64,000 bases of DNA from Deltaproteobacteria bacterium. Its GTDB lineage: Bacteria > Myxococcota_A > UBA9160 > UBA6930. The translations under genes and the position numbers were made by a program. Shown one piece after another: positions 9,812 through 59,684 of the stretch. Position 1 is the stretch's first letter; each line of letters opens with the position of its first letter. Under the pieces are notes generated by a model. The model had not been told where the DNA came from. It ran no database searches and saw only the letters and a program-made list of their open reading frames with translations. The stretch is taken from positions 23,965 to 87,964 of the forward strand of contig JAJDAQ010000061.1 of assembly GCA_029261815.1 (NCBI GenBank). The letters are read 5' to 3'.

Positions 9812-12800
9812 AGATTGCCGACATCTCGATCGATCGGCCGGTCTTTGCCGGGATGCTCATCGTCTCGCTCGTGGTGCTGGGCCTCGTCTCGTTGCAACGA
9901 ACCGAGCTGCGTCTCGAGCCCGAGATCGACTTTCCCTACGCCTACGTCGTCACCGAACTTCGCGGCGCTTCGCCCGAAACCGTCGAACGCGAAGTCACCG
10001 ACATCCTGGAGCAGGCGCTGAACCCCATCGAGGGCATCAAGAACCTGTCTTCGACCTCGTCCCAGGGCATCTCGCGAGTCTTCATCGAGTTCGGCATTGG
10101 GTACGACGTCGATGTGAAGGCGCAGGAGGTCCGCGACAAGGTCGCATTGGCACGTCCGGACCTGCCACTCGATGTCGAATCCCCGGTCGTCCAGAAGTTC
10201 GACTTCGATTCGATCGGCTTCATGACGATCGTGATCGGTGGCAACCTCGGCCCCAAGGAACTAGCGGACTTTGCCGAGTTCGAGGTCAGAGAGCGACTCG
10301 AGCGCATTCCGGGCGTTGGCGGCGTAGCCCTCCAGGGTTCCAGGGAACGCGAAGTCCGCATCTGGCTCGACCCGCTGCGGCTCACGGGTTACGGCGTCTC
10401 GATCGACGATGTCGCGAATACCTTGCGCGCCGAGAATGCCGAGTTCGCGAGCGGTCGGCTGGAAGGCGAAGCGAAGGAATGGTCGGTCACGACCCAGGGC
10501 AAGGCCAGCAGCGTGCTCGAGTTCGGCGAAATCATCGTCGCCGAACGGGATGGTCGTGTCGTTCGGCTGCGCGACGTTGCCGTCGTCGAGGACGGGCTTG
10601 CCGAACGCAAGACCGTGGCGCGCTTCAATGGCCGGCCCGGTGTGGCCCTCGAGGTCGTCCAGCAAAGTGGCAGCGACCTGGTCGCCGCGACGCGACTCAT
10701 CCGCAAGGAACTCATCTCGATCCAGGAGACCGCACCGCCCGAGATCGAAATGACGGTCGCGCGAGACTATGCCCGCATCATCGAGGACCAGGTGGCATCC
10801 GTCCTGTTCGACATGATGCTCGCCGCCGCACTGGTCTTCGTCGTCGTCCTGATCTTCCTTCGCAACTACCGTTCGACGCTGATCGCATCCCTCGCGATTC
10901 CGACCAGCGTGATCTCGACATTCACCTTCCTCTACTGGCTCGACATCTCGCTGAACAACATGACCTTGATGGCGCTGTCGTTGTCGGTCGGCCTCGTGAT
11001 CGATGATGCGATCGTCGTGCTCGAGGGCATCTACCGGAAGATCGAAGAAGGCCACGATCGTGTGTCGGCTGCCCGCCTCGGCACGGCCTCGGTCGGTCTC
11101 GCCGTCCTGTCGACCACGGCCGCGGTCTGCGCCGTCTTCGTTCCGATCCGGTTCATGACCAGCACGATGGGGCGCTACTTCTTCGAGTTCGGTGTCACCG
11201 TCACGGCCGCCGTCGCGGTTTCGTCCCTCGTCGCGCTGACGCTGACCCCCATGCTCGCCAGCAAGTATCTGCGGCAGACGCCCAAGGAAGGCGCCTTCTT
11301 CCGAGTCTGCGAGAAAGGACTCGTCTGGATGGAGCAGCGCTATCGGCGCCTGCTCGAAGTCGCGCTCGGCTACCGCCGCGTCACCGTCGTGTTCACGATC
11401 GCGATCGTGTTCGGTGGTTGCTGGGTCCAGAGCACGGTCCCGGTCGACTACTTCACGCAGGACGACCTGAGCGAAGCCCGTGTTTCCATCGATCTACCGA
11501 TCGGGACGCCCCTCGCGGTGACCGACCGCGTGATGCGCGACGTCGAGGAAGCCATCGCACGCCATCCCGACGTGCGTGGCGTCTTCGCCTCCGCTGGCAA
11601 CGTACAGCAGCACCGCCCGAACGAGGCCGTGATCGATGTCCTCTTGATCCCCAAGGTCGAGCGCGAGAAGCCGATCGATGACACGTTCGTGGAGCTGCGA
11701 GAGATCGCCCGCGGCGCGGCGCCCTCCGTTGAGGACCTCACGGTGGGCCACCCGATGTACGCGAGTTCGAGCGGCGACGACATGGTCGACGTCGAGTACG
11801 AGCTTCGCGGGCCCGACCTCGACCGCCTCCAACGTTATGCCGCCGAGTTGATGCATCGAATGGAGAAGGAACCCGGACTCGTCGACGTCAGTTCGTCCCA
11901 CGAGACCGGCCGCCCGCAGATCACGCTCGACATCGATCGTGGTCGCGCCGCAGAAATGGGCGTCTCCGCGACCGCACTCGGTCGCACACTTCGTACCCTG
12001 CTCGCCGGCGAGAAGGTCGGCTCGTTCGAAGACCAGGGGCACCGCTACGACGTCCGCGTCCAGGTGCTTCCCGAGTACCGCGACGACCCGACCAAGCTCG
12101 ATCTGATCCGCGTGCGCTCGGTTCGCGGTGAACTGGTGCCGATCGCGAACGTCGCAAAGATCCACACCGAACTCGGCCCCGTCGAAATCCGGCGCTCGGA
12201 ACGTGCACGCGTGATCGAAGTCCGGGCGAACACGGCTGGCGATCTCTCGCTCGAACAGGCCGAGATCCTGCTCGAAGGCTGGGGCCAGGAACTCGGAATC
12301 GAAGCACCCGATGCGTTGATTGCGGGCGGCCAGAGTGAATCACGCGCGGAAGCCGCGGCCGACATTGGACTCGCGCTCGGGCTCGGAATGCTCGCGATCT
12401 ACATCATCCTCGCGTCGCTCTTCAATTCGTTGACGCAGCCGATCACGATCATGATGTCGGCTCCGCTCTCCTTCATTGGCGGCTTCCTCGCGCTCAAGCT
12501 CGCGGGTCAGAGCATGGACATCATGAGCAACATGGGGCTGCTCGTCCTGATGGGCCTCGTGATGAAGAACGGCATCCTGCTCGTCGACTACATCACGCAG
12601 CTCCGCGAATCGGGGATGGACCGCGATCAGGCGATCCTCGAGGCGGGCCCCGTGCGCATGCGCCCGGTCCTCATGACATCGGGCGCGCTCGTGTTCGGCC
12701 TGCTTCCGATGGCGCTCTCGACGGCAACCGGTGCCGAGTTCCGTGCGCCGATGGCCTGGATCGTGATCGGAGGCCTGGCGACGTCGACCGCGTTGACCCT

Positions 12801-17974: not shown

Positions 17975-18041
17975 GCCGCCCAGGCTCCCACCCCAAGGAA
18001 TCGGGCACGCGCCCGTCCCGCGTGCGCTAGCTTCGCCAACA

Positions 18042-18141
18042 CAGCCTGGGGGTGGACCCAGTGGTGCAAGTCGCGCTGCGAGGGATCCTGAGATGACACC
18101 CTTGGAACCTGATCTCGTTCGCGCGAGCGTAGGGAAGGCTG
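18042..18141 (+). ncRNA. TPP riboswitch
   Basis: GGGGTG...CTGAGA...ACCCTTGGAACCTGATC...AGCGTAGGGAA with P1 CAGCC/GGCTG, upstream of thiC. Confidence 0.92.
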
Positions 18142-18227
18142 GTCCGTCGGAACCGTGACCGCAGGCTCGCCCTGCCACCCTTCCCCGGCCCGTCCCCCGT
18201 GCTCCGCCCTCCCAAAGGAGCGTGACC

Positions 18228-19964
<1,737 letters not shown>

Positions 19965-22632: not shown

Positions 22633-23121
22633 TCACGGCCCCTTTGGGGAGAAGAGCGAGAGCTGTTCCGGGCGCGTTCCTGTAGGCGTGCGCTGACGCC
22701 GACGAGTCACCGTCGGAGCAGGCTCCACTGTGCTGGCTGCGACACGCGCGGGGGGCTGCTGCACCCGCCGACGGCGCGGCTCGTAGATCCCCTCCCGGCG
22801 GGCATAGGCCAGCAGGCGCTTGTAGAACGCTTGGAAGCCGGGCCCATGGTGCCAGTACTTCAAATGCGCGAGTTCATGGCAGAGCGTGTCGACCAGGCTC
22901 GAATACTTCAGCAGGTCTCCGCTCCCGACCTTGACCAGTCGGATCTTGATCGTGCCATCGTCGAAGCACGCTCCCCACCGACGCTTGACGCCGGCGCGTT
23001 CGGCTTCGACGACGCGGAAGCGCAATCCGAACGGCTCGGCGATCTGGCGCGCGTCGCGATTCAATCGCGCCACGACGCGGTCGCGCGTTGTTCGATCTAG
23101 GGTTTTCCTGGAGTCCGCCAC
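22633..23121 (-). CDS. Zinc metalloprotease domain protein (YgjP/WLM/SprT-like)
   Basis: RWGAC, CHELAHLKYWHHGPGF. Confidence 0.8.
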   Translation of the reverse strand: MADSRKTLDRTTRDRVVARLNRDARQIAEPFGLRFRVVEAERAGVKRRWGACFDDGTIKIRLVKVGSGDLLKYSSLVDTLCHELAHLKYWHHGPGFQAFYKRLLAYARREGIYEPRRRRVQQPPARVAASTVEPAPTVTRRRQRTPTGTRPEQLSLFSPKGP

Positions 23122-23172
23122 GCAAACGCCAGCTTCGCTGCGGCACTCCGAGGCGTCAAGTAACCTTGCGTC

Positions 23173-23835
23173 GTGTCGTCCGCCGAGATCCCGATCTTTC
23201 CGTTGGGCCAGGTCGTCTTGTTTCCAGACGCGACCGTGCCGCTCCACATCTTCGAGCCGCGCTACCGCCAGATGACGGCCGATGCCCTCGCGGGCGACCG
23301 TCGCATTGGCATGGTCGGTGTGCGACCGGAGAGCGCGCAGGAAATGGGCGGCGATCCGCCGCTCTACCCAGTTGGCTGCGAGGGCTTCATCGAGCAGCAT
23401 CAGGAACTCGCAGACGGCCGCTACCAGATATTGCTGCGTGCGACGTCGCGCTTTCGCATCGAGGCAGAGTTGCCGCGCGAAGGCGGCCGACTCTACCGCG
23501 TTGCGCGTGTGGTCGAGCTGCCTGAAGTCATGGGCGACCCGGCCGAAATCGCGAAGCATCGCGCGCGTGTCATCGCGCATCTGGAGGAGATCGCGCGGCG
23601 CGCGATGAGCGATTCCGCATCCGAACCCTTCGACACCGCTCCGCTCGCCGCACTCACAGACGAGAAATTTGCGAACGGTGTCGCACAGTCGATCGCGCTC
23701 CCGCCGCAAGAGAAGCAGAGCTTGCTCGCCGCGGACTCGATCGAGAGCCGGCTACGACAATTGGAGAGCGCACTGTCGTTCCACCTCACGGCGCGTTCCC
23801 ATTCGGCGCCCGGGGGCAACGAAACCCTGCATTGA
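23173..23835 (+). CDS. Lon N-terminal substrate-binding domain protein
   Basis: IPIFPL, VLFP, PLHIFEPRYRQM, DGRYQILL. Confidence 0.9.
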   Translation: MSSAEIPIFPLGQVVLFPDATVPLHIFEPRYRQMTADALAGDRRIGMVGVRPESAQEMGGDPPLYPVGCEGFIEQHQELADGRYQILLRATSRFRIEAELPREGGRLYRVARVVELPEVMGDPAEIAKHRARVIAHLEEIARRAMSDSASEPFDTAPLAALTDEKFANGVAQSIALPPQEKQSLLAADSIESRLRQLESALSFHLTARSHSAPGGNETLH

Positions 23836-24231
23836 GCGCCGAATTCGGGCGCGTTTTGGCGTTTCCGTTTTTCAGTGAATTTTCTCGTTTATCTTTGAAA
23901 TGGACCAGTTTCGAGAGATACGAGATTTGTTCGATCCACCGGAATGACACCGTTCCGTGACGCCGGGTGATCTCTTGGTTTTCCCGCGGAACCCCCCGAA
24001 ACCATGAAGGGTTCTGCATTGCAAACACCGGTTTCCGACGGCTTGAACGGTCGTTTCGCATGAACCGCTCATGTGTCACCCGGCCGGCCAGTTCGGAAGT
24101 CGATGTGATTGCGAAGCCGAGGCCTACATGCTCTACTCCGCCTTCCTGGGGAGCGTGAGCCGGCTGGATCTGGCCCAATCTCTCCAGATCCTCCAAAAAC
24201 CGCGTTCTGCTGCACTTTCTCGGAAGACCGG

Positions 24232-25728
24232 ATGCATCATCCCCCCGCGGTGTGGGACGACGTTTTACGTCGCCTTCGCACCGAGATGCCCGACTTTGCG
24301 ATTGAGGCTTGGATTCTCCCCCTATCCATCCGTGAAGACTTCACGGACGGCCATCGGGTGCTCCACCTCATCGCGCCCAACCCGTTTCATCGCGATCGGG
24401 TACGCAACCGCTTCATCCAGACGCTGACCGAAGCGGCGACGGCGGTCGCGAAGCAGCACGTGCACGTGCGCATCGGAGTCGAGGGGGAAGCGCTTCAGGA
24501 GAATCCCTCGGTCGTCGCCGCTAGCGCCCCGATGCCGATCGAACGCGCGGCACCCACGGCATCCATCGCGCGCGCCACGCTGTCGGTCGAGCCCAAGGAA
24601 CCGACTCTCGAAGTCGCCGCCACGGCAACCCCCGAGCCCCTTCCTGAACCGGAACGACGACCGCTGCGCGTGCGACCCGCCGCGGCGCACGCCGAAGACG
24701 ACGACGCGCCACAGCAGCTGAACCTTCCTGCGACGTTCGAGAACTTCGTCGTGGGCTCCGCCAATGCCCTGGCGCGGGAGGCGTGCCTCGCAGTCGTCGA
24801 GGGCCGCCAGACCGGAGCCAACCCGCTCTACATCGTGGGCAGCATGGGGTCGGGCAAGAGCCATCTTGCGCGCGCCCTTGTCAGCGAAGCGCGGCGTCGC
24901 AATGACGGCCGGACGGTCTACTGCTCGGCCGAGGGCTTCACCACCGAACTCACGCAGTCCATTCGTGAACGCGACACGAAGAAGTTCCGCAAGCGGTTCC
25001 GCGGGGACTGCCGCCTCCTCGTCATCGAGGACGTGCAGTTCTTCGAGGGCAAGGGCGCGACCCAGGGCGAACTCTTCCACACGATGGAGCACCTGCAACG
25101 GGTGGGCGGTCGCATCGTGCTCACGGGCGACCGCTTGCCGCGCGAGATCCAGCGCCTCGATCGACGGCTCGCGTCGAACATGGCCAGCGGCCTCGTCGCC
25201 GGAATCGAAGCACCCGACCGCACCCTGCGACGCGAGATCCTGCGCGCGAAAGCCTCGCGGGGAGGCCTGCGCGTTCCGGACGATTGTCTCGAACTGCTGG
25301 TCGACTCCGTGCGGGGGAGCGTCCGGGACCTCGAAGGTGCACTCGTGCAGGTCGTGGCCAGTGCCAGCCTCCTCGGCCGCCGGATCGACCTCGAACTGAC
25401 CCGGGAAGCGCTGCGCAAGGTCGCCGCCCCGGCCAATGGCCTCCTGACCCTGACCGATGTCATGGACTGCGTTTGCGGGTTCTTCGGCGTCACCGAAGCG
25501 CAGCTCCGCTCGCGCGCCCGGTCAAAGGGAGTCCTGGTTCCGCGCCAGCTCGTCATGTACCTCTGCCACCGCTACACCGACGCCAGCTTCTCCGAGATCG
25601 GTCGACAACTCGGGCGAAATCACCCGTCGGTGTCGAACGCCGTCCAGAAGGTCGAGCGCGAAATTCTCGAGCGCGCGCCGCTCCGCTACCAGGTCGAAGA
25701 ACTGGTCGCGCGCCTGGGCCGCGACTAG
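24232..25728 (+). CDS. DnaA-family protein (divergent paralogue)
   Basis: Domain I (AWILPL, APNPF), FENFVVG, GSGKSHL, IEDVQF, VRDLEGAL, domain IV PRQLVMYL..EIG. Confidence 0.9.
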   Translation: MHHPPAVWDDVLRRLRTEMPDFAIEAWILPLSIREDFTDGHRVLHLIAPNPFHRDRVRNRFIQTLTEAATAVAKQHVHVRIGVEGEALQENPSVVAASAPMPIERAAPTASIARATLSVEPKEPTLEVAATATPEPLPEPERRPLRVRPAAAHAEDDDAPQQLNLPATFENFVVGSANALAREACLAVVEGRQTGANPLYIVGSMGSGKSHLARALVSEARRRNDGRTVYCSAEGFTTELTQSIRERDTKKFRKRFRGDCRLLVIEDVQFFEGKGATQGELFHTMEHLQRVGGRIVLTGDRLPREIQRLDRRLASNMASGLVAGIEAPDRTLRREILRAKASRGGLRVPDDCLELLVDSVRGSVRDLEGALVQVVASASLLGRRIDLELTREALRKVAAPANGLLTLTDVMDCVCGFFGVTEAQLRSRARSKGVLVPRQLVMYLCHRYTDASFSEIGRQLGRNHPSVSNAVQKVEREILERAPLRYQVEELVARLGRD

Positions 25729-25902
25729 CCGAGCGAGTCGCACCGCCCGCGCCCGGAGCCATGCTCCGCTGCAGCGGAATCCCTTCGCCGTGCATGCTCC
25801 CGCCTGCGGCCAGCGGCGCCTGACGCCCGCTCCTGCGTTCCCCCGTTGGCCCCTCCCTTGCAAAAGGGTTCTCTGCCGCGCCGAACCCGCAAGGAGACCC
25901 AC

Positions 25903-27171
25903 ATGGCCGCTGATCAAGAGACCCGCCCCTTCATCGCTCCCGAACCGATCGTCGAGTTCGACTTCGCCGATCCCGCCTTCCAGGCCGACCCGTACCCGAC
26001 CTATCGTGCGCTTCGCGAGCTGGAACCCATCGCGTTCCGGGAACAGGATGGCTTCCAGGCTTTCTGGCTGACGCGTTTCGAGGATGTCGAGGCCGTGCTG
26101 CGCGACAGCCGCTTCACCAGCGCCGAAGGCCCTCCGGAACTTCGCCAGCCCGGCGTTCCCGAGAAGTTTCGGCGGCTCGGCGTACTGCTCGAGAACATGA
26201 TGCTGCTGCGCAATGGCGCCGACCACGCCCGCCTTCGGTCCCTGGTGAACAAGGCGTTCACGCCACGCATGGTCCAGAAGCTGGTTCCTCGCATCGAGCA
26301 GATCACCGACTCACTCCTCGATGCGGCGCTCGATCGCGAGACGGATGAGCTCGACGTGATCCGGGATCTCGCGACACCGCTTCCGGTCCTGGTCGTCGCG
26401 GAGCTACTCGGCGTTCCGTCGGAAGACCAGCCGCGATTCAAGGAGTGGTCCGACGACATCGCAGTCGTCCTCGACGGTTCGGTTCGAACCGCCGGACTCC
26501 CGGCAGCCGCCGAGAGTGCGAGTGCACTGGCCGAGTATCTGCGCGACGTCGTCGCGAAGCGCCGCGCCGAACCGCGCGAGGACCTCCTGTCTGCCATGGC
26601 CGCCGCACGCGACGACCGGGACGCGCTGACCGACGACGAACTCATCGCCAACGCCATCCTGATCCTGATCGCCGGACATGAGACGACCACGAATCTGATC
26701 GGGAACGGGACCCTCGCCTTGTTGCGCAACCGCGATGAACTCGCGCGTCTGCAAATGCGGCCCGACCTGGCAGAGGCCGCCACCGAAGAGTGCCTGCGAT
26801 TCGACCCTCCGGTTCAGCTCACCGCGAGACACCCGATCGAAGACGTTCCCTTCCGGGGGACCTGCCTGTTCCCGGGTGCCGAAGTGACCCTCTCGTTCGG
26901 TGCAGCCAATCGAGACCCTGCGTGCTTCGAAGACCCCGAGCGCTTCGACATCACGCGGTTCGCCAAGGGCACCAAGGCGCGCCGTCACCTCTCGTTCGGG
27001 CACGGTCTGCACTTCTGCCTCGGTGCCCCGCTTGCGCGGGCCGAGGGCGCCGTCGCCCTGCGAAGACTCGTCACGCGACTGCCCGGAATCGCGCTCAGCG
27101 ACGAGTCCCCCCCGCGGCGGCCTGGTCTGGTCCTCCGCGGAGTGAGCGCACTGCCGGTCAGCATCCGATGA
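25903..27171 (+). CDS. Cytochrome P450
   Basis: AGHETT, EECLR, FGHGLHFCLG. Confidence 0.96.
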   Translation: MAADQETRPFIAPEPIVEFDFADPAFQADPYPTYRALRELEPIAFREQDGFQAFWLTRFEDVEAVLRDSRFTSAEGPPELRQPGVPEKFRRLGVLLENMMLLRNGADHARLRSLVNKAFTPRMVQKLVPRIEQITDSLLDAALDRETDELDVIRDLATPLPVLVVAELLGVPSEDQPRFKEWSDDIAVVLDGSVRTAGLPAAAESASALAEYLRDVVAKRRAEPREDLLSAMAAARDDRDALTDDELIANAILILIAGHETTTNLIGNGTLALLRNRDELARLQMRPDLAEAATEECLRFDPPVQLTARHPIEDVPFRGTCLFPGAEVTLSFGAANRDPACFEDPERFDITRFAKGTKARRHLSFGHGLHFCLGAPLARAEGAVALRRLVTRLPGIALSDESPPRRPGLVLRGVSALPVSIR

Positions 27172-28565
27172 GTGGCGCGACCGCCGAGGTTCTCCCGACA
27201 GCTCCGGCGCCCGATCTTGCTGCCATTCCGACGGCGCACGAGAAACTGTCGCTCCGGACGATTGCCCTCTTCTCCTCCCCGATCGCTGGCGAGGGCTTCA
27301 TGCAGATGTTGACCAGCCTCTATCTCCTGAAATACACGACGGACGTCCTCGGCCTCGCGCCGGCAACCATGGGCTCGATCCTGTTGCTAGGCCGGATCTG
27401 GGACGCGGTCTCTGATCCGCTCGTGGGGTTGTGGTCGGACCGCACGCACACCACGATCGGGCGACGAAGACCGTGGATCCTGGCGGCGGCGATTCCAATG
27501 AGCGTCTCCTTTGTCGCGATCTGGGCTGCCCCCGTTTCGCTCGGCACCACTGCGGTGACCGCCTGGGTCGCCGTCGCGATCATGGCCTACTACACCTGCC
27601 GGACGGCGTTCGGGGTGCCACACGATGCCCTGGGCGCAGCGCTGACACCCGACTATCACGACCGGAATCGACTCTTCGGAATCCGACGGGCATTCTTCGG
27701 CGTCGGAGCGATCTTGGTATTCGTTGCGCTCGGTGGCTTTCTCGATGGCGAGGATCCTCGCGGCCACGCATTGCGGGTGACAACGCTGGCTGCCGTGGCC
27801 ATGGCCGTGGCGGCTCTCGGAACCGGGCTCTTCGTACACGAACGGCCCGAGCACCTTGGGCGCGGGAGCCGCGACATCGCCTCCGCGTGGCGCCATGTAG
27901 CCGCCAATCCACACGCGCGGATCCTCCTGGGTGTCTTCTTCCTGCAACAGGTCGGCACCACCGGCGTCACGATGATGGCCGCCTACTACGCCGAGTACGT
28001 ACTGATGGATGCCGGCGCGTTCGTCCGGATCATGGGATCACTCTTCGTCAGCTCCGTCCTCTCGATCCCGCTTTGGATCGCGCTCGGTCGCCGCTTCGAC
28101 AAGAAGAGGCTGCTGGTCACGTCGATGGTTGTGGTAGGTGCCGTCCTGACGTCTCTTGGATTTCTCGGCGAAGGCGATAGCGGGATCCTGCTCTGGGTCG
28201 GGATCAGCGCAGGAATCGCGATCGGTGGCCTGGACGTGCTCTTTCCTTCGGTCCAAGCCGACGTGATTGACTATGACGAGGCGCACACGGGGGAACGCAA
28301 GGAAGGCGTCTACTTCGCCGCCTGGCACTTCTCGGCCAAGACCGCGATGGGACTCGCGGCTTTGATAGGCGGCATCGCCCTCCAGTCGACCGGATTCGTC
28401 CCCAACGAGATCCAGACTGCCGAGACCCGCGACGCGATCCGGGCAACGATGTCACTGATCCCGGCCGTCACCTATGGCGCCGGTGTGCTCCTGTTCTGCC
28501 GCTTCGGCCTGACACGCGAGGAGCACGCGGCGATCCGCCGCACGATCGCGGACCGCGTCTCGTGA
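27168..28565 (+). CDS. GPH/MelB-family MFS symporter
   Basis: DAVSDPLVG..SDRT..GRRRPW, DVIDYDE..TGERKEG. Confidence 0.9.
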   Translation: MSGATAEVLPTAPAPDLAAIPTAHEKLSLRTIALFSSPIAGEGFMQMLTSLYLLKYTTDVLGLAPATMGSILLLGRIWDAVSDPLVGLWSDRTHTTIGRRRPWILAAAIPMSVSFVAIWAAPVSLGTTAVTAWVAVAIMAYYTCRTAFGVPHDALGAALTPDYHDRNRLFGIRRAFFGVGAILVFVALGGFLDGEDPRGHALRVTTLAAVAMAVAALGTGLFVHERPEHLGRGSRDIASAWRHVAANPHARILLGVFFLQQVGTTGVTMMAAYYAEYVLMDAGAFVRIMGSLFVSSVLSIPLWIALGRRFDKKRLLVTSMVVVGAVLTSLGFLGEGDSGILLWVGISAGIAIGGLDVLFPSVQADVIDYDEAHTGERKEGVYFAAWHFSAKTAMGLAALIGGIALQSTGFVPNEIQTAETRDAIRATMSLIPAVTYGAGVLLFCRFGLTREEHAAIRRTIADRVS

Positions 28566-44050: not shown

Positions 44051-47000
44051 TCAGCCGGCTTCGTCGTCCAATAGGCCAATGAGATAGGCCCGCATGTCGG
44101 CCGGCGCGACGATCTCCTCGAGAGAGCCGACCTCCCGGGCCCGTTCGACCGAGTGGATCCGATCGAACTCTTCGGCCATCTCCTGCTGCTTCTCAAGCAG
44201 GACATCGGCATATCCGCGCTCGTACGCCAGGCGCGCGGCATCACTCTGGTCACGTTCCCGGGCGAGCTCAACCACCCGTGGATCCGCCACCGCTCGCGCG
44301 CGGACTTCCCTTCCGAAGACGACCTTGGCAGCCGGCCCGCCGCCGATCACCGACGCATAGGATCCTTCCAGCGCGGAGGCGCGCAGCCGCGGGTTCAGCG
44401 CGCGGGAGAAGACGACGTAGGCGCCGCCGTGATAGCGCGAGACCACCAGGAACAGGATCGGTCCATCGAAGTTCACCACGGCGCGCGCTATCTCGGCGCC
44501 GTACTCGAGCTGGAGCTTACGCATCGACTCGGGCGATCCGTCGAAGCCCGAGAGGTTCGCCAGGATCACGACCGGCCGGTTGCCGCTCGCGGCATTCAGC
44601 GCGCGCGCCACCTTCTTGGATGACTGCGGGAACAACGTCCCGCCATTCCAGGCATCGGGGCCATCGTGGGGACGGAAGCCGTCGCGGCTCACGTTCTGAC
44701 TCTCGATCCCGACCAAACAGACGGGATCACCTCCGAGGTGCGCGTCCCACACGATCGCGGTTTCTGCGCCGACCCAGCTCCGCCAGCGTTCGAGGTGACC
44801 GCCGTCTTGATCGATCACCGCGTGCATCACAGCGCGCATCGAGAAGGGTCGCTTTCGGCCCGGATTCGATTCGCCCGAGAAGATCTCGCCCACCGAAGAG
44901 AACTCGCTCGTGGTCTCGATCGTGTGCTCGCCAACGCTGCGGGTGGCGGGGTCGCCGCTCTCGGTGCCGCGGGGCCCGGCTTCGCCCGGAACCACGTAGG
45001 TGTAGCGGTAGTGCTCGTAGAGGATGCGGAATGCTTCGGCGAGGTCGCCGGCGAAGTATTGCGCCTGGCCATTCGGCCCCATGATGCGCTCGAAGCCGCC
45101 GATCGCGGCCTCGTCTTCCGCGGATACGGAACCGGATGCCTCGAGCGCCGCTCGCCCGGTCAACACCATCGAGGCGTTCTGCGTCATGATCAGGACGCCG
45201 CGGGTGTGCATCAGCATTGTGGACAGCGCGTCCCAATAGCTCTGCGCGCCGACGTTCACACCCGCAATGATGAGATGGATCGTTCCGCCAGTCTGGGTGA
45301 ACTCGATGATTCGCCGCACGACGCGGGCCGTGGCATCAAGGTTCTCGGTCCCACTATCCATCGCGATACGGGCGCCGGACGAAACCGGGATCCACTCAAG
45401 CGGTACACCGCGCTTTTCGGCGAGGTCGATCGCGGCCACGATGCGATCGCACTCGGCACCCGCGAGCGAACCCATTCCGCGCGTCGGATCGGAAAGCACG
45501 ATCACGCGCTCCATTCCCTCCGGGACCTTCTCCGTCGGTGTCGTGATCCGCCCGATGACCACGCCGCAAGTGTTCTCGCCATAGGCGCGGCCGGAAACGC
45601 TGACCGCTGTCGGAGTGGGCGCGGCCGGGTCGAGGTCGTACTCCTCGAAGTCGCCGGCAGGCAGATCGAGGTCCGGATCGACGCCAGAGGCTGCGCGCCC
45701 CGAACCCGTCAACATGCGCACGATCTCGTATGGGTAGACCAGCCGACGTCGGCGCGCGTCGACGACCTTTCGCTCGTAGTCGCTATGCGGCAGCAGAACG
45801 CTCCGCCTCGGTTCGCGCATGAGGATGGTCATGCTCATCCCCGTCACGTTCGAAATCACGACCTCGAGTTCGCGACTCGGACGTTCAGGCGCGTCGCGGT
45901 CGAGCGTGCGGAGCCGGGCGACGACCTTCTCCAAACCCAGGTTTCGTGTGGCCGGCGCCAGCTTTCGCGACAGTCGCTCGGACACTTCAGGGCCGAGGAA
46001 GACCTCGGCACCGAGATAGATCGCGATGCGGTTCCACTGGAGCCGACGCTTGGGGTCGCGCTCGCGAAGGATGCTGCGCAACAGTCGCGTCGCTTCGTGG
46101 AACGCGTGCTCGAACGCGGGTAGGTGGAGATCCGCCTCGTGGCCGTCTTCTGGTGAGCGCGTTCGCAGGTCGGCGAGAACGAAGATTCGCTCGTCCCCGG
46201 GTTCGTCCTTTGCCCGGCCGTGAAAAGCGTAGATCCCCTCGCTGGTCGCCACCGCCTCGAGGTCGAAGCCCGAGAGCCGCTCCAAGTCGACACGGTCTGC
46301 GGCTTCCGGGTGCAGGCCGTGCAGGCGAGCGTCTTCGCGATACCCCGTCGGCGTCGGCAGGAATGTCCGATGGCGGTCCGGCGCGTGGTCACGAACCTCG
46401 GTCACGGTCAGCCGACCGGCCGGGAGCCCATCGCCGAGAAGCGGCGCGAGCGCCGCCTCGACGTCGAGTGCGTCGTCCTCGGATTCGGTGCGCGTGAAGA
46501 GTTCGAGCGCGTGCACCGAGGGCCACTCGTGGGACTCACGGCCGCGGCGCGCCTCGTCCATCAGATGCGCCGCCGTACTGGCGAGTGTCTCGGGTGCGCA
46601 TGCGCCACCGATGACGACGCGGCCGCCCGGAAGTTCCATCCGCTCGAGCCAGTGTTCGCCCTCGCGAATCGTGGCTTGCTCGACGGGGATCTCCGGCGAG
46701 AACGCGCGACGGAGATGCGCCGCGAGTGCGATCGCGCGCCGTCGCGGATCCGGATCCGAAACCCAGCCCCCGACACGGTCGAACACCGCGCGCCTAGCGT
46801 CTGCCAGATCTCGCAGGACCCGCTCGGGCGGTGCTGTGGGCTGACTCGCAGCAGTGTCGAGCCATCCCTGAACGCCCTTGGTCGTTCTCTCGGCCTGCGT
46901 CTCGACCTCGGGCCGCTCGAAGATTTCGTAGTGAGCCTCGATCGCAGCATCCGCCACGAGGTGGGAAACCAAGCCACGCATTCCGGACACCGCATCGAGT

Positions 47001-49624
47001 GCGCGCGCCAGGACTGCATCCCCGCTCATATGGACGCCGCGGCGCGCCAGCGCGACCAGCCGACGGAGCATCGCCAGGCCCAGCCGGTCGCGGAGTTCGG
47101 GTTGGCGCTGGGTCGCCAACAAGCGAAGCACGGCGCGTTCGACCGCGTCGTTGGGGGTCAGACTCCCGATGCCATAGTGCCCAAGCGCCGCGCGCACCAG
47201 GTCGAGGTACGCCTCATCGAGCCCGGCGCCACCGGCGCGAACGCGGCGAGCGTACATTCGCAACCGCGCCTCGTTCGACGGGCCGTGGTCCCCGGCGATC
47301 GACGCACCGGGCGCGCGAATGAACAAGCGCGCCACGTCAGCAAGGGCCACCAACTCGGAGCGGATCTCGGCGAGCTCCCAACAAAAGGCATCTGAGACGT
47401 CGTCGGGAACTTCAGCTTCGAGGAAGCGTCCGAGCGCATCGGCCCGTCCCGGATTTGCGTCATAGCCGAGCAACACCCGGCGGGTCTCTTCCCGAACGCC
47501 CGCGATGGCGGAACGGCGCTGCGCGAGTGGAGCGCGATCCGCGGCCGAAAGGTCCGGGACTCCCAAAGGTTCACCCTGCATCGGCGCGAAGAGAGGCTCG
47601 AGCGGATCGTCCAGCTCGGCCAATGCGATGCGCGCGGCGCCCGCCTCTTCGTCGCCATCGGCCTGCGGGTCGATGACCAGGATCACGTCGCCAGCAGCAA
47701 CCTGCTCGCCCTTTCGGACGCGGACTTCGGTCACCACGCCGGCCACGGGCGCATCGAATCCGACTTCCATCTTCATCGCTTCCAGGACGCCGAGCGCCTG
47801 ACCACCCTTGACCACGTCACCGGGCTGCACATGGATCGTAACGACCATCGCGGGCGCACCGGCACGAACCTGGCCCGCCGTCTGCGACGAGAATGCGTAG
47901 GCGCGGCCCTCGACTTCGACACGCATGCCGACGTCGCCGACGTCGTAGAGGATACGAAGTGTCTCGTCGCCGATCTCGAGACGCGCAGTGTGCGCACCCT
48001 CCTCGCGAAGCGTTGCGCCAACAACCCGACTGTCGAGATGCACGCGGTAGCGCCAGGCTCCGAGTGCGAACACCTGGAGCCGGTACTGCTCGCCCTCATA
48101 GGAGAGATCGATCTCTTGACCCTGACTCGCCCCGACACGGGAAAGGTTCGATGCGTCTGCGAAGAAATTCAGTCGTTCGTTCGCGCGGTTCCGTTGATAG
48201 GTGAGGATCGCCGCGGTCACCAACGCGGATGCGTCATGGCCTGCATCGTGCGATCGCGCGTCGCCGAACCGATCGAGCCAGGTCGTATCTACGGCGCCAC
48301 GGCGATAGTCCGGGTGTTCCAGGATCTCGGCGATGTATCCCTTGTTCGTTGCGCCACCCTCAATGACGAGGTCGAAGTCCGCAAGCGCCGCGACCAGACG
48401 GGCGCGTGCCTCTTCCCGCGTGGACCCGGTCGCAATGACCTTGGCGATCAGCGAGTCGAACGCCGCAGGGACCACGCTACCGCTCGCAACCCCGGTATCT
48501 ACGCGAATGCGTGGCCCGAGCGCAGGCTCGAAGCGCGCGATGCGGCCGGGTGCCGGCAGGAAACCCTTGTCTGGATCTTCGGCGCATACACGCGCCTCGA
48601 TTGCGTGGCCCTGCTCGACGATCACGAGGTCAGCCAGAGACTCGCCGCGGGCAATGCGGATCTGGGTCTGTACGAGATCGATGCCCGTGATCTCCTCCGT
48701 GATGCCGTGCTCGACCTGGAGTCGCGGATTCATTTCGAGAAAGCTGTATTCATCGCCGGAAACCAGGAACTCGACGGTGCCGACGCCGGCATAACCGACT
48801 TCGCGCGCGATCTTGGTCGCGGAGTCCTGGATCCCCTGCAGCACGGCCGGAGCAAGACCCGGCGGCGGTGCTTCTTCCAGGACTTTCTGGTGGCGACGCT
48901 GCACCGAACAGTCGCGGGTGCCGACGGCATGCACGTTGCCATACAGGTCTGCAGCGATCTGCACTTCGATGTGGCGCCCACCCACGACCTTCTTCTCGAC
49001 GAAGAGGCGGCCGTCTCCGAACGCGGCCTGGGCTTCCGACGCCGCCGAGGCGAACGCGGTCTCGAGGTCTGCCGGGTCATCGACGACCCGAATGCCACGG
49101 CCCCCGCCTCCGGCCGACGCCTTGACCACGACCGGGAAGCCAATGGCTTCTGAGTGACGCCGGGCATCTTCGGCTGTCTCGAGAACACCACGGCTCCACG
49201 CAGTGACGGGAACAGCCACCGACTCCGCCAGGTGCTTCGATCCGATCTTGTCCCCGAGAGCGCGCATGGCATCTGCCTGGGGGCCGAGGAATCGGATTCC
49301 CTCTTCGGCGAGGCGATCGACGAATGCGGGGTCTTCGGCGACGAAACCCCAGCCCGGCCAGACCGCATCCGCGTCCACGGAGCGGATGGCGTCGATCAAT
49401 GCGCCGTGGTCCAGGTACGCAGCGACGCCGACGCCGGCGAGTCGAACCGCGAGATCTGCATGTCGCACGAACGGTGCGTCGCGCTCGACCTCGGTATACA
49501 ACGCGACCGCCTGGAGATCCGAACCCTCCTGGGCGCGTAGTGCCTTCACGGCGCGAATGCACCGCATCGCGGACTCGCCGCGGTTGGCAATGGCGAGCCG
49601 CCGGATCGGTTGGAAGCCGCTCAA
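44051..49624 (-). CDS. Single-chain multidomain acyl-CoA carboxylase (BC-BCCP-central-CT)
   Basis: ANRGE, GGGGRG, RDCSVQRRHQK, EMNPRLQVEH, EAMKME, SSGARI, ANLSGFDGS, GGAYVV; TTG start overlaps upstream TGA. Confidence 0.93.
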   Translation of the reverse strand: MSGFQPIRRLAIANRGESAMRCIRAVKALRAQEGSDLQAVALYTEVERDAPFVRHADLAVRLAGVGVAAYLDHGALIDAIRSVDADAVWPGWGFVAEDPAFVDRLAEEGIRFLGPQADAMRALGDKIGSKHLAESVAVPVTAWSRGVLETAEDARRHSEAIGFPVVVKASAGGGGRGIRVVDDPADLETAFASAASEAQAAFGDGRLFVEKKVVGGRHIEVQIAADLYGNVHAVGTRDCSVQRRHQKVLEEAPPPGLAPAVLQGIQDSATKIAREVGYAGVGTVEFLVSGDEYSFLEMNPRLQVEHGITEEITGIDLVQTQIRIARGESLADLVIVEQGHAIEARVCAEDPDKGFLPAPGRIARFEPALGPRIRVDTGVASGSVVPAAFDSLIAKVIATGSTREEARARLVAALADFDLVIEGGATNKGYIAEILEHPDYRRGAVDTTWLDRFGDARSHDAGHDASALVTAAILTYQRNRANERLNFFADASNLSRVGASQGQEIDLSYEGEQYRLQVFALGAWRYRVHLDSRVVGATLREEGAHTARLEIGDETLRILYDVGDVGMRVEVEGRAYAFSSQTAGQVRAGAPAMVVTIHVQPGDVVKGGQALGVLEAMKMEVGFDAPVAGVVTEVRVRKGEQVAAGDVILVIDPQADGDEEAGAARIALAELDDPLEPLFAPMQGEPLGVPDLSAADRAPLAQRRSAIAGVREETRRVLLGYDANPGRADALGRFLEAEVPDDVSDAFCWELAEIRSELVALADVARLFIRAPGASIAGDHGPSNEARLRMYARRVRAGGAGLDEAYLDLVRAALGHYGIGSLTPNDAVERAVLRLLATQRQPELRDRLGLAMLRRLVALARRGVHMSGDAVLARALDAVSGMRGLVSHLVADAAIEAHYEIFERPEVETQAERTTKGVQGWLDTAASQPTAPPERVLRDLADARRAVFDRVGGWVSDPDPRRRAIALAAHLRRAFSPEIPVEQATIREGEHWLERMELPGGRVVIGGACAPETLASTAAHLMDEARRGRESHEWPSVHALELFTRTESEDDALDVEAALAPLLGDGLPAGRLTVTEVRDHAPDRHRTFLPTPTGYREDARLHGLHPEAADRVDLERLSGFDLEAVATSEGIYAFHGRAKDEPGDERIFVLADLRTRSPEDGHEADLHLPAFEHAFHEATRLLRSILRERDPKRRLQWNRIAIYLGAEVFLGPEVSERLSRKLAPATRNLGLEKVVARLRTLDRDAPERPSRELEVVISNVTGMSMTILMREPRRSVLLPHSDYERKVVDARRRRLVYPYEIVRMLTGSGRAASGVDPDLDLPAGDFEEYDLDPAAPTPTAVSVSGRAYGENTCGVVIGRITTPTEKVPEGMERVIVLSDPTRGMGSLAGAECDRIVAAIDLAEKRGVPLEWIPVSSGARIAMDSGTENLDATARVVRRIIEFTQTGGTIHLIIAGVNVGAQSYWDALSTMLMHTRGVLIMTQNASMVLTGRAALEASGSVSAEDEAAIGGFERIMGPNGQAQYFAGDLAEAFRILYEHYRYTYVVPGEAGPRGTESGDPATRSVGEHTIETTSEFSSVGEIFSGESNPGRKRPFSMRAVMHAVIDQDGGHLERWRSWVGAETAIVWDAHLGGDPVCLVGIESQNVSRDGFRPHDGPDAWNGGTLFPQSSKKVARALNAASGNRPVVILANLSGFDGSPESMRKLQLEYGAEIARAVVNFDGPILFLVVSRYHGGAYVVFSRALNPRLRASALEGSYASVIGGGPAAKVVFGREVRARAVADPRVVELARERDQSDAARLAYERGYADVLLEKQQEMAEEFDRIHSVERAREVGSLEEIVAPADMRAYLIGLLDDEAG

Positions 49625-50229
49625 CCCACTGCTCCAGTCTCCAACGTACGACCCCTCAGGTCTGCGGCCCACGCGACGAATCGCCCATGGTGAGACAACG
49701 AGAGGTCTACCCCGGCGGGCGTGTCGCCGTTCATCAATACCGGTATGCGCTCTTCGCGCGCGACGGACAACCGCTCGGGCGGCTGACCAAGGTGCTGGGC
49801 CAGGCCTGCAACCGCGAGTGCGCGAGCCGCCAGTCCCTCGTCTTCGCCGACGGCGAGATGAGCGACCTGCCAACACTGCGCTTCTGCGCTTGGCGTTGCT
49901 GCGCTGACCAGCGCGTGGACATGCTCTCCGTCTTCTTCAACCCACATCGGAAACTTGTGGCCCGCGTGCTGCACGGTGCCAGAGAGGTTTGCGTCGAGCA
50001 GGACCTCGAAGCGACGCGGCGACCAGATGACGCTTGCGTCGAGTTTCTTGTGGACCTTGTACGCGGCTTCCTTCGCTGCCCAGTACATCCAGCGCAATCG
50101 GTCGGGCGCTCCGCTCGAAGCGAGGGCCTCACGCTCCGCGCGAGAGAAGACACGGGCGTCGAAGCGGACATGACGCGCTCCCGGCTGTGTGCTCGGGTGG
50201 CGCAAGTCGACGACATCATTGCCGATCAT
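49621..50229 (-). CDS. 4'-phosphopantetheinyl transferase
   Basis: IGNDVVD, WAAKEAAYK, SLSHHG. Confidence 0.9.
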   Translation of the reverse strand: MIGNDVVDLRHPSTQPGARHVRFDARVFSRAEREALASSGAPDRLRWMYWAAKEAAYKVHKKLDASVIWSPRRFEVLLDANLSGTVQHAGHKFPMWVEEDGEHVHALVSAATPSAEAQCWQVAHLAVGEDEGLAARALAVAGLAQHLGQPPERLSVAREERIPVLMNGDTPAGVDLSLSHHGRFVAWAADLRGRTLETGAVG

Positions 50230-50971
50230 CGAACCAGACCTTCTCCATTTCGACGAGCTTCGTGACGATCTGACGCGACAGGTCGAGCGAACCGCGCAAG
50301 CCACGTGCGTCCGTTTTCGGTTCGAGACATTCGAGCGAGACGCGGAAGGTTTCGCCCCGGACCGGGGACTTCGACCACGTCTCCTGCTGGTCACCTCTCA
50401 GGTAGACGCAAAGGACGCGGCACCCGGGAAGCGAAGACACGAGCCGACCGACCCCGTACGCGGCGCTGTCGACCTCCACGCGGCCCGTACGGCTGCGTCC
50501 GCCTTCTGGAAAGATCAGTGCGGTTTCGCCGCGTGCGACCAGGAATCGGATCTTCTCGAGAACCTGGGCCACCGCTTTTCGATCAGAGCCCCGCTCGACC
50601 GGAACGCACTTCAACAAGTAGGCGATCACTCGCTTCCACCAGGTGGAAGCGAAGTTCGCCTTCTCGGGCGTATTCCACGCCAAGGCCGCGAAGTCGCGCA
50701 GGTAGTAACGCGGACCCGCCAACGCCCACTCGATCGCGAACGAGTCGTACATCGTCAGGTGGTTGGCGCAGATCAGGAGAGGCGCATCCGACTCCGCCCG
50801 CAACCGGGCGAACTCCTCGCGAACGACGTCGATGTTCTCGACCCGCCAGCGCAGACCCCATCTCATCACTGCAGTGAAGATGGGAACCCACAGCGGCGAC
50901 AACAGACGGCTCACCGCATGCTGCCGAAGCAACGTGCGGCGCTCGCCATCCGCTAGCGCGCTCTCGGCCAA
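50216..50971 (-). CDS. PlsC-family lysophospholipid acyltransferase
   Basis: NHLTMYD (HX4D), FPEGGRS. Confidence 0.88.
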   Translation of the reverse strand: MAESALADGERRTLLRQHAVSRLLSPLWVPIFTAVMRWGLRWRVENIDVVREEFARLRAESDAPLLICANHLTMYDSFAIEWALAGPRYYLRDFAALAWNTPEKANFASTWWKRVIAYLLKCVPVERGSDRKAVAQVLEKIRFLVARGETALIFPEGGRSRTGRVEVDSAAYGVGRLVSSLPGCRVLCVYLRGDQQETWSKSPVRGETFRVSLECLEPKTDARGLRGSLDLSRQIVTKLVEMEKVWFDDRQ

Positions 50972-50980
50972 GGATCGCGC

Positions 50981-51226
50981 CTAGAGCTTCTGGCCGATGA
51001 GCGTCACGCAGTCGCCGATCGTGTTCACCGTGTCGACGTCTTCGTCTGCGATCTCGATGTCGAACTCGTCCTCGAAGGCCAGCACGACGTCGACCAGACG
51101 GGCCGAATTCACCTTCAGGTCTTCGAGCAGGTTCGTTGTCGGGCTCACGGACGCGAGCGCCTCTTGATCCTTCACGTAGGGCGTCAGGATCTTGACGACT
51201 CGTTCCTGGATTTCGGTGGTTTCCAT
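50981..51226 (-). CDS. Acyl carrier protein (NSAR motif)
   Basis: DLKVNSARLVDVVLAFEDEFDIEI; GAGGAG RBS. Confidence 0.92.
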   Translation of the reverse strand: METTEIQERVVKILTPYVKDQEALASVSPTTNLLEDLKVNSARLVDVVLAFEDEFDIEIADEDVDTVNTIGDCVTLIGQKL

Positions 51227-51308
51227 GGGTTCTCCTCTTCGAATATCGATGGCTTGAATACGGTTGGAATGAATGGGCGCGCTGCGAGAGGCACGACGAC
51301 CGGGTCGC

Positions 51309-52586: not shown

Positions 52587-53044
52587 ACCGTGACTCCGAT
52601 GCCGGCGAGCGTTCCGCTGCAGACGACCGTTCCGTCTTCGGTCTTCATCTCGGAAGCAATCTTGAGCTTCCGTCGCCGGTAGAAGACCCGCTGCGATTCA
52701 ACCGTGACCGTATCTCCCGGATAGACGGAGCGGTTGAACTCGATCTCGGCCTCCGTGAAGAAGGTCGTGATCTTCTCCGCCTCGTCCGCGTGGTCGCGGT
52801 AGCTGAAGAAGATGCCGAGCGGCACGACGCCGCACTGTGCCATGCATTCGATCAGCAGGACGCCGGGTGTCACCGGGTTCCCGGGGAAGTGCCCGCGATA
52901 GCATTCGAGCGCCGGATTCCAGGTGTACCGCCCGACGACGCGCTCGTCACTGAGCTCGAGGATCTCGTCAACAAAGCGAAACGGGTCCTGCTGCGGGATC
53001 AGCGGCAGGATCTCTTCGCGTGTGAGGATGCGGCTATCCGCCAT
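52583..53044 (-). CDS. 3-hydroxyacyl-ACP dehydratase (FabZ/FabA hotdog)
   Basis: PFRFVD, GHFPGNPVTPGVLLIECMAQ. Confidence 0.92.
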   Translation of the reverse strand: MADSRILTREEILPLIPQQDPFRFVDEILELSDERVVGRYTWNPALECYRGHFPGNPVTPGVLLIECMAQCGVVPLGIFFSYRDHADEAEKITTFFTEAEIEFNRSVYPGDTVTVESQRVFYRRRKLKIASEMKTEDGTVVCSGTLAGIGVTV

Positions 53045-55701: not shown

Positions 55702-56088
55702 CGTGGATCCTCCTCGCCGACACGCGAAGACCACCCGCCTCCCGGTTCCACCGGGGCCAGATGCTTCCTCGTGCATGGGCTTTGCGGGGTTTCACCCCCT
55801 CCGCTTTTCAACCGAACGGGTGGAGCCCGGCCATTCCGGGTTGCCTGGACCCCAATTCCCCCGATCTGCGGACAGTGACCGGATGTGACTCCGAGTCATT
55901 TCCGCGATCGGGTTCAGGATCGCCCAAGCGCCGCGTCTGTCAACCCGCGTTGCCTGGCTCGAACAAGGCGCGTGCCGCGCCCCTCACCCGCGGGCAAGCA
56001 TCCCCCCAACCGGTGGGAGTGGCAAGGATTTCCTGGGATTGACACAGGACTTTGACACGCCGACGGCCCAGCCGCGCGTGGCCGGGCA

Positions 56089-59666: not shown

Positions 59667-59684
59667 TCGCGTCTGCGTTCCACC

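Follow-up and report, generated by a model that had tools for sequence, protein, structure and literature searches.

We found that the DnaA protein encoded in the window (the whole stretch of 64,000 nucleotides analysed here) belongs to a clade, termed clade A, in which the arginine-finger column of box VII varies freely while the upstream box VII arginine, R312, stays fixed. We lean towards the view that clade A DnaA is the lineage's own replication initiator, in which R312 may have taken the role of the trans-acting arginine or in which that role may be dispensable. The original prediction had read the same gene as an orphan paralogue and not as the initiator. Clade A occurs in no fewer than 129 species genomes, most of which are MAGs with the label Myxococcota or Deltaproteobacteria, and no account of such a clade was found in the literature searched. 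Coordinates of the features are collected in Table 1.

Table 1. Features of the clade A dnaA locus, in window positions.
Feature	Position	Strand	Basis or remark
LON_substr_bdg protein (Lon N-terminal domain only), 220 aa	23173..23835	+	Pfam, conserved synteny
LonN-dnaA spacer	23836..24231	.	Length and sequence conserved
Promoter-like element TTGCGA, 17 nt, TCTACT with preceding TG	24109..24137	+	Conserved in 60/75 loci
dnaA-family ORF P0001, clade A	24232..25728	+	Translation, Pfam, TIGR00362
Domain I (DnaA_N)	24247..24441	+	Pfam, alignment to E. coli
Walker A GSMGSGKS	24838..24861	+	K209 in 74/74 clade A rows
T241, ssDNA-binding H-motif position	24952..24954	+	Equals T. maritima V176 (alignment; available part of PMC10316083)
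Walker B LLVIED	25015..25032	+	First acid E in 71/74 clade A rows
Box VII RRLASNM	25162..25182	+	Alignment to solved DnaAs
R312	25165-25167	+	Equals E. coli R281
N316, arginine-finger position	25177-25179	+	Codon AAC
Sensor II SVRDLEG	25318..25338	+	R365 in 74/74 clade A rows
R438	25543..25545	+	Equals E. coli R399, minor-groove contact (available part of PMC5742627); in 74/74 clade A rows
Recognition helix start GRNHPSVSNA	25612..25641	+	Alignment, clade A rows

The gene is a stop-free ORF encoding a 498-aa protein, and its start is backed by the aligned N-termini of homologues. Pfam matched DnaA_N at residues 6-70, Bac_DnaA at 166-323 (E-value, 1.5e-40) and Bac_DnaA_C at 409-474; all four domains of DnaA are thus present, as had been predicted. 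The match to B. subtilis DnaA (8btg) had an HMMER E-value of 6.4e-67, and in domain I residues W8 and F52 aligned with E. coli W6 and F46, with A23 opposite E21. The score against the DnaA equivalog model TIGR00362 was borderline (359.9 bits versus a cut-off of 343.9), and the cut-off was reached by 8 of the 13 clade A proteins tested, the other 5 falling below it. Hda is a short protein without domains I and IV. The window protein shares with Hda/HdaA a homologous AAA+ domain but scored only 85.8 bits against TIGR03420, far below its cut-off of 194.8; moreover, the Hda model spans 226 positions, whereas the DnaA_N and Bac_DnaA_C matches indicate that the window protein has domains I and IV.

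Residues for nucleotide binding are all in place, namely K209 of Walker A, E266-D267 of Walker B, D300 of sensor I (LTGDR) and R365 of sensor II. This bears out, from the alignments, the expectation that the ATP-binding motifs are retained (residue counts for clade A were taken from 74 full-length rows). Walker B indeed reads IED, but a glutamate at its first acidic position is also present in 12/119 representatives of ordinary DnaAs, and "ED" is therefore no rarity among DnaAs. The AID-1 arginine R257, the B-motif lysine K274 and the AID-2 leucine L321 are intact. Among the ssDNA-binding motifs K274 is thus retained, and the H-motif position is occupied by T241; this position carries I or V in 107/117 other DnaAs, M, T or L in clade A and T in 119/120 clade B proteins.

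Gap-free HMMER alignments placed N316 opposite the finger arginines of B. subtilis 8btg, T. maritima 2z4r (R251) and Aquifex 1l8q. Both alignment and codon therefore confirm that the window DnaA lacks the arginine finger (E. coli R285) and has asparagine instead. The finger column of clade A held Q in 46 rows, R in 11, H in 7, E in 4, K in 3, and N, T and L in one each (n = 74), while the position of R312 was arginine in 72/74. The best 120 homologues gave a similar result: Q in 101, R in 3 and other residues in 16 at the finger, with arginine at the R312-equivalent position in every one (120/120). Asparagine at the finger was seen only in the window protein (1/74 rows, 1/120 homologues). The finger column thus varies freely in clade A while R312 stays fixed. 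Clade B shows the reverse, with arginine at the finger in 119/119 proteins and upstream in 11/120, and other DnaA representatives (n = 117) mostly carry both (finger R in 113, upstream R in 100).

In domain IV, "G-RNHPSVSNA" of the window protein aligned with "GGRDHTTVLHA" of E. coli (1j1v). R438 and H464 are kept, and E. coli positions 433, 435 and 439 became N, P and N; proline at the T435 position (P465) was found in 60/74 clade A rows and asparagine at the H439 position (N469) in 64/74. The alignment therefore upheld the predicted change of the recognition helix: two residues differ within the E. coli 434-451 helix, the element that recognises the 3' part of the DnaA box (available part of PMC5742627). 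Since P465 and N469 lie in this helix, the lineage probably has its own 3' half of the box. T. maritima DnaA has "RSHPVV" at the same place and reads the noncanonical box ACCTACCAC (available part of PMC10316083). This protein is a true initiator that resembles the window protein in its helix ("SHPVV" versus "NHPSV"), but it keeps finger R251, and the window shows no enrichment of its box. Overall, the window protein has in common with the canonical DnaAs of E. coli, B. subtilis (8btg) and Aquifex (1l8q/2hcb) the four domains, Walker A and B, sensors I and II, the AID-1 arginine, the AID-2 leucine, the upstream box VII arginine, the domain I Trp and Phe, the minor-groove arginine and the histidine opening the recognition helix. 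It differs from them in the finger (N here, variable in the clade), in the H-motif residue (T instead of I/V), in the P and N at 435/439, in the position of its gene apart from dnaN and oriC and in a TIGR00362 score only at the cut-off.

Clade A was recovered in a tree with 56 of its rows (SH-aLRT, 96), nested among R-type DnaAs, and FastTree concurred. The finger is arginine on the earliest clade A branches, and the tree requires at least 20 state changes in this column, at least 10 of them between R and non-R. Even very closely related proteins disagree at the finger (R in L046 versus H in L041). On this phylogeny, the genes at this locus are orthologues whether or not they encode the finger arginine. 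The nearest relative of the window protein (L002, about 70% identity) has glutamine there. Clades A and B are each other's nearest relatives (SH-aLRT, 99), with similar root-to-tip lengths. NCBI lists the clade B proteins (P0150 and its relatives) under the name [quoted passage not shown]; they resemble clade A in phylum label, Walker B "ED", H-motif threonine and borderline TIGR00362 scores, but differ in an invariant finger arginine, in an upstream box VII residue that is mostly lysine, in a canonical-like helix ("RDHTSVMYA") and in a sensor II helix without the "EG" of LEGAL. TIGR00362 scores were 332.8-347.6 bits in clade B and 317-365 bits in clade A, compared to 409.7 and 458 bits for two ordinary DnaAs. 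Both clades thus score equally near the cut-off, which gives clade B no claim to being the more canonical partner.

We then considered the gene neighbourhood, using 80 kept clade A loci on 80 different accessions (one copy per assembly). The order is a LonN-domain gene, a spacer of about 400 bp, dnaA and mqn genes. Across 74 loci this synteny held over DnaA identities of 41-66%, with the LonN-domain gene at -1 in 51/74; position -2 or -1 was taken by a YgjP-like gene, and position +1 or +2 by mqn radical-SAM genes. Housekeeping genes in the window include chorismate synthase, a MutY-like gene, ThiC, mqn, a lipid A acyltransferase and fatty-acid synthesis genes, and three clade A loci lie on records titled chromosome (3.67-5.83 Mb). 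The predicted lack of dnaN and gyrB nearby held within the scanned window ORFs: the Pfam families of DnaN, GyrB and RecF were absent from 59 window ORFs and 15 further ORFs, in a scan that took in all spacer ORFs of at least 30 aa and, elsewhere, ORFs of about 90 aa or more, so that a distant rpmH may have escaped it. Of the 992 ORFs called at clade A loci, DnaN was found neither among the 769 in 35 annotated clusters nor among another 52 with lengths of 300-470 aa.

Measured on the + strand, GC skew was negative throughout the 64 kb for genes of either strand and did not switch. Among the 30 loci with two flanks, the skew pattern was (-,-) in 8, (0,0) in 13 and (-,+) in only 2. The gene is therefore away from the origin and appears to lie on the lagging strand. 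Given no DnaN in the scanned ORFs and no skew switch, the gene does not occupy the usual, though not universal, place beside oriC and dnaN. DnaA boxes were not enriched in the window, either for canonical boxes with at most one mismatch (1 match versus 2.47 expected) or for the T. maritima type (6 versus 3.95 expected). For a sole dnaA without dnaN at its side, a precedent is reported from this phylum: in Sorangium cellulosum, also of the Myxococcota, dnaA lies about 2 Mbp from an oriC that adjoins dnaN and is itself only predicted (available part of PMC8538405; PMC2650636).

The spacer upstream of dnaA is AT-rich in its 5' part (about 23850-23940) and also holds conserved blocks, which a PWM scan found to be unique in the window (22.1 bits, with the next best match at 18.4 bits inside a coding region). 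Its promoter-like element, so called for its conservation, would leave a leader of about 90 nt to dnaA. A sigma-70 consensus scan of positions 23600-24400 returned no promoter-like site; it missed this element on account of the C at position 2 in the second hexamer. The spacer was rejected for now as an oriC, since there is no GC-skew switch and no repeated 9-mer and the blocks are single copy. A structured RNA was likewise rejected (RNAalifold predicted 0 pairs from 35 sequences, and Rfam yielded nothing above chance). Its 9 small ORFs of at least 30 aa had no Pfam match. The motif TTYTNCGWC occurred in excess in the locus spacers (48 GAC/GTC endings versus about 4.7 expected), with matches mostly in one orthologous block and in A-tract repeats; the window spacer holds no exact copy, and the whole window has 12 versus 7.9 expected. 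We regard it as a candidate lineage box and as a lead only.

Clade A could be an old, lineage-wide DnaA paralogue whose genomes also contain another dnaA, either of clade B or of a more ordinary type; it would then serve as a nucleotide-binding transcription factor, or modulate or cap DnaA filaments, much as the original prediction had it. We judge this rather unlikely, although several observations suit it. The finger column is unconstrained through its 20 or more changes, the H-motif residue is noncanonical and the recognition helix altered, no dnaN was found within 10 kb among the scanned locus ORFs and there is no skew switch. Moreover, a sister clade named DnaA exists in MAGs of the same phylum label, the reciprocal loss of arginines also fits duplication followed by complementary degeneration, and, within the best 150 representatives, clade B forms fewer 50%-identity clusters than clade A (3 versus about 30), as might be seen in a partner that evolves more slowly. 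A bolder variant would have both clades share cells and form mixed filaments with complementary box VII arginines. Yet TIGR00362 does not rate clade B as more canonical, clade B has the same odd H-motif residue, root-to-tip lengths are similar, and the helicase- and oligomer-contact residues F52, R257, K274, L321 and R312 are kept in the window protein. No contig of at least 100 kb was common to the lists of both clades, a comparison of low power with about 0.2 co-occurrences expected. One coincidence in length between the two lists, at 3,195 bp, is too short for a comfortable fit of both genes. The literature searched held no Myxococcota case of two dnaA genes and, to our knowledge, few genomes carry two full-length dnaA genes. 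The claim of an orphan paralogue was thus not supported, given a neighbourhood kept across 74 loci, a gene nested inside the DnaA tree, a finger arginine in 11/74 same-locus orthologues and a sole close relative, clade B, that is no more canonical.

Two further explanations carry little weight. An initiator of a secondary replicon or chromid would fit a distant dnaN and the lack of an origin signal in the window, but it is highly improbable next to core housekeeping genes and three loci on chromosome-titled records of megabase size. We give practically no credence to the idea that a dying copy of dnaA has decayed privately, or that the substitutions arose as an artefact of sequencing or assembly: asparagine at the finger is indeed private to the window, but the frame is intact with a coding GC3 pattern (0.79), L002 has glutamine at the finger, no arginine is fixed there clade-wide, all other motifs are conserved and a conserved promoter-like element lies upstream. 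That the substitutions are unique decay is refuted by the homologue counts and the 74 rows, in which they are clade-wide.

The reading of clade A DnaA as the lineage's initiator has its own difficulties. A free finger (glutamate in 4/74) and an odd H-motif would also be expected of a paralogue freed from initiation, 5/13 clade A proteins score under the TIGR00362 cut-off, and the window has no origin-type skew or box cluster. Reviews and the available part of PMC10316083 hold the finger (E. coli R285, T. maritima R251) indispensable for ATP-DnaA to form the origin-opening oligomer; indeed, the mutants T. maritima R251A and E. coli R285A do not unwind origins (available parts of PMC10316083 and PMC5742627). 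The lethality of E. coli DnaA(R285A) was nevertheless suppressed once oriC was rebuilt as oriC-allADP, so that a fingerless DnaA sustains viability when the low-affinity ATP-dependent sites have been replaced (available part of PMC6727663). This illustrates how an initiator could do without the finger; the system is an engineered one, and clade A would be a natural case.

Were clade A DnaA the initiator, it would still bind ATP and assemble head to tail. Box VII is helical, and R312 may supply the trans-acting arginine, with the finger shifted by four residues, as its conservation suggests; alternatively, the origin of the lineage may be made of sites independent of finger-mediated cooperative binding. 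R438 would keep the contact to the 5' half of the box, the 3' half probably being lineage specific, and dnaA would be separate from oriC and dnaN throughout clade A.

We tentatively propose, as a possibility, that this lineage initiates replication with a DnaA without a fixed arginine finger, either because the arginine moved to R312 or because finger-dependent, ATP-specific assembly is not needed. With such finger-free initiation in view, the sequences suggest that sister clade B took the opposite route. If true, E. coli R285A with oriC-allADP would have its natural equivalent in clade A. A large natural clade with a finger drifting among Q, R, H, K, E, N, T and L offers a handle on the universality of finger-dependent assembly, and the pattern in clades A and B bears on whether the two box VII arginines can replace each other. 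About a third of the tested clade A proteins fall under the NCBI DnaA equivalog cut-off, which matters for annotation. Finally, clade A bears on how origin architecture and DnaA-box specificity coevolve with the initiator.

The window dnaA is an open reading frame of 498 codons, and its GC3-rich composition is that of coding sequence in this window of 66% G+C. DnaA_N, Bac_DnaA and Bac_DnaA_C were all matched in its product (Pfam), which scored 359.9 bits against TIGR00362, the NCBIfam DnaA equivalog (cut-off 343.9), and far below the cut-offs of the Hda models. Box VII aligned without gaps to solved DnaAs (HMMER), with N316 at the position occupied by the finger Arg in the DnaAs of B. subtilis, T. 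maritima (R251) and Aquifex. The original prediction had observed correctly: the frame, the Asn in place of the finger (by codon and alignment), the IED form of Walker B, and the retained Walker A and sensor-II Arg were all recovered, and its remark that dnaN and gyrB are not nearby was borne out, since no DnaN, GyrB or RecF was found among 59 window ORFs scanned. In domain I, the aligned counterparts of E. coli W6 and F46 are kept. In domain IV, 'G-RNHPSVSNA' aligns to 'GGRDHTTVLHA' of E. coli (1j1v) and to 'NRSHPVVVDS' of T. maritima DnaA.

Against 5.8 billion proteins, 992 matches were obtained, the best 120 at 51-73% identity. Among these best 120 of 992, the finger column held Q in 101, E in 5, W in 4, A in 3, R in 3, T in 2, and Y and N once each; the first acid of Walker B was E in 110, helix position 435 was P in 112, position 439 was N in 113, and the upstream box VII Arg was present in all 120. 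With each GTDB species represented by one genome, a scan detected 129 relatives, of which 80 were kept, each on a separate assembly; 60 of the 80 are labelled Myxococcota, Myxococcales, Myxococcaceae or Deltaproteobacteria, and 3 records are titled chromosome. Across 74 full-length rows of this group, termed clade A (73 loci plus the window), the finger column read Q46 R11 H7 E4 K3 N1 T1 L1; K209, R365 and R438 were invariant, and R312 (E. coli R281), four residues upstream of the finger, was R in 72. Decay unique to the window gene, the outcome that the original prediction had set against itself, is refuted, since the substitutions characterise the whole clade. One clade A copy, L053 (dnaA at about 10001-11515), has 'VEN' at Walker B and 'ECVRDQ' at box VII, with both box VII arginines missing; it may be decaying or functioning differently.

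Among 1.84 billion cluster representatives, 23,300 DnaA-like matches were found. About 30 clusters (50% identity), scoring from 497 down to about 280 bits, were assigned to clade A, and below these the scores step to ordinary DnaAs of 29-44% identity, mostly 33-38%. In a quick IQ-TREE analysis (LG+G4, 72 rows), clade A (56 rows) had an SH-aLRT of 96 and was sister to a small clade B (proteins P0150, P0154 and P0166; support 99). Clade A was nested among R-type DnaAs, in agreement with FastTree on 125 rows, and its earliest branches carry R at the finger. To explain the finger column within clade A, at least 20 changes are required, of which a minimum of 10 are gains or losses of R (4 forced by well-supported branches); the column differs even between very close relatives (R in locus L046 versus H in L041). 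Thus, the R-bearing and R-less genes at the dnaA locus are orthologues, and constraint on the finger position in clade A is weak.

With P0150 as query, 329 proteins were retrieved (best 120 at 55-89% identity), several of them named 'MAG: chromosomal replication initiator protein DnaA [Myxococcota bacterium]' by NCBI. Among these best 120 of 329, the finger was R in 119/119, and the upstream position was R in only 11/120 (K77, G12, A8, Q5, others 7). Of 117 other DnaA representatives, 100 carry the upstream Arg and 113 the finger Arg (both 98, finger only 15, upstream only 2, neither 2). The upstream Arg is therefore fixed more tightly in clade A than in DnaAs generally, with the finger freed. 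Clade B is the opposite, with the finger fixed and the upstream Arg freed. Nor is clade B a 'normal' DnaA that makes clade A look degenerate: TIGR00362 scores were 332.8-347.6 bits for clade B and 317-365 for clade A, and two ordinary DnaAs reached 409.7 and 458. The ssDNA-binding H-motif position is noncanonical in both clades (T in 119/120 of clade B; M25 T22 L20 Q4 V3 in clade A), and other DnaAs have I or V in 107/117. Both clades retain the Arg of AID-1 (R257), the Lys of the B motif (K274) and the Leu of AID-2 (L321).

The window dnaA is flanked by the same genes as the related loci. In 74 loci where gene calling recovered dnaA, the Lon-N gene lies at -1 in 51, a YgjP-like metallopeptidase gene at -2 in 40 and -1 in 11, and two MqnC/MqnE-like radical-SAM genes at +1 in 33 and +2 in 36; ThiC, an APH-family kinase, sulfite reductase and a GGDEF protein occur further out. 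By tblastn, a Lon-N homologue is present in the window and in 59 other loci. A link between this protein and DnaA turnover is speculative; its gene probably forms a separate transcript from dnaA, because a terminator-like hairpin follows it. The YgjP-like ORF, about 540 bp of which lie within the Lon-N gene, is probably overlong, with its true start much further downstream, because homologues in related loci have only about 150 aa. Between dnaA and the mqn genes, the P450 (window only) and MFS_2 genes (just two related loci, L071 and L074) look like a local insertion. Of 992 ORFs called in the related loci, the DnaN check covered 769 ORFs of 35 annotated clusters and 52 further ORFs of DnaN-like length, and found no DnaN.

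Features of the window
Feature	Coordinates	Strand	Remarks
TPP riboswitch (Rfam RF00059)	18038-18152	+	57.5 bits, gathering score 54.3; directly upstream of thiC
thiC	18222-19964
YgjP-like/WLM ORF	22633-23709	-
Lon-N gene	23173-23835	+	220 aa; Lon substrate-binding (N-terminal) domain only
Terminator-like hairpin	23847-23864		3' of Lon-N gene
Lon-N-to-dnaA spacer	23836-24231		about 400 bp
Promoter-like element	24109-24137		conservation
dnaA	24232-25728	+
Asn316 codon AAC	25177-25179	+	finger position
Walker A			GSMGSGKS, present
Walker B			LLVIED, present
Sensor I			LTGDR, present
Sensor II			SVRDLEG, present
Cytochrome P450 and MFS_2 transporter genes	25846-28565	+
Acetyl-CoA-carboxylase-like ORF	44051-49936	-	1961 codons; biotin carboxylase, biotinyl carrier, ACC_central and carboxyltransferase in one chain
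Cluster adjoining carboxylase-like ORF	49621-55791	-	phosphopantetheinyl transferase, acyltransferase, ACP, ketosynthase, FabA-like dehydratase, ketoreductase, KAS III, enoyl reductase
Exonuclease-helicase fusion	56856-59684	-	942 aa; RNase_T-type exonuclease domain and DinG-like helicase C-terminal domain

The spacer upstream of dnaA measures 353-492 bp in 60/61 loci (654 bp in one), and its sequence is conserved across loci. It contains a promoter-like element (TTGCGn, 17 nt, TCTACT with a preceding TG; 60/75 loci), not called by a simple sigma-70 scan and followed by a leader of 64-130 nt. The AT-rich 5' part carries CGAAA-type motifs, with 30/46 pairwise spacings of exactly 10, 20, 30 or 40 bp, and several conserved blocks occur in single copy, e.g., TTGCAAACAGCGGTTTTCCGACG. 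Neither a consensus RNA structure nor an Rfam match was found in the spacer. We read it, from these patterns, as promoter plus regulatory DNA; a reading as oriC was not adopted.

According to excerpted text of PMC5742627, ATP-specific cooperative binding and unwinding in E. coli depend on Arg285, which recognises ATP in the adjacent protomer, and Arg281 serves oligomer stabilisation and is required for DnaB loading; Arg399 contacts the 5' TTA of the box and helix 434-451 its 3' part (TnCACA). T. maritima R251A is described as keeping ATP and single-box binding and losing unwinding (PMC10316083, in part), and the lethality of E. coli R285A as suppressed once low-affinity origin sites were rebuilt as oriC-allADP (PMC6727663, in part). 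The window DnaA would bind ATP and would retain head-to-tail assembly, either with R312 as the trans arginine or at an origin able to work without it; its box would have an ordinary 5' half and an altered 3' half. T. maritima DnaA is a real initiator with an 'HPxV' helix and a noncanonical box, so such a helix is compatible with initiation.

The original prediction took the gene for a noninitiator paralogue. That clade A is an old co-resident paralogue, including a variant acting in mixed filaments, seems to us the less likely reading. Variation at the finger (even to Glu) and an altered H motif would also be expected of a paralogue freed from origin opening. Throughout the window, the + strand skew (G versus C) is negative for + and - strand genes alike (-0.032 and -0.026) and does not switch across these 64 kb of a 136,666-bp contig, and 30 loci with both flanks included 8 (-,-), 13 (0,0), 2 (-,+) and 1 (+,+); dnaA is therefore away from the origin and seems to be on the lagging strand. 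In Sorangium, dnaA is likewise reported distant from dnaN and a predicted oriC (PMC8538405, in part; PMC2650636), and M. xanthus is described with a dnaA-dnaN-gyrB arrangement (PMC12390754, in part). No large contig was common to the clade A and clade B match lists, which carries little weight, as only about 0.2 co-occurrences were expected.

We somewhat favour the reading of the window DnaA as a lineage-specific initiator whose finger is relocated or dispensable. No description of such a DnaA clade was found in the literature searched, supplements aside, and the clade is of real interest to replication specialists.
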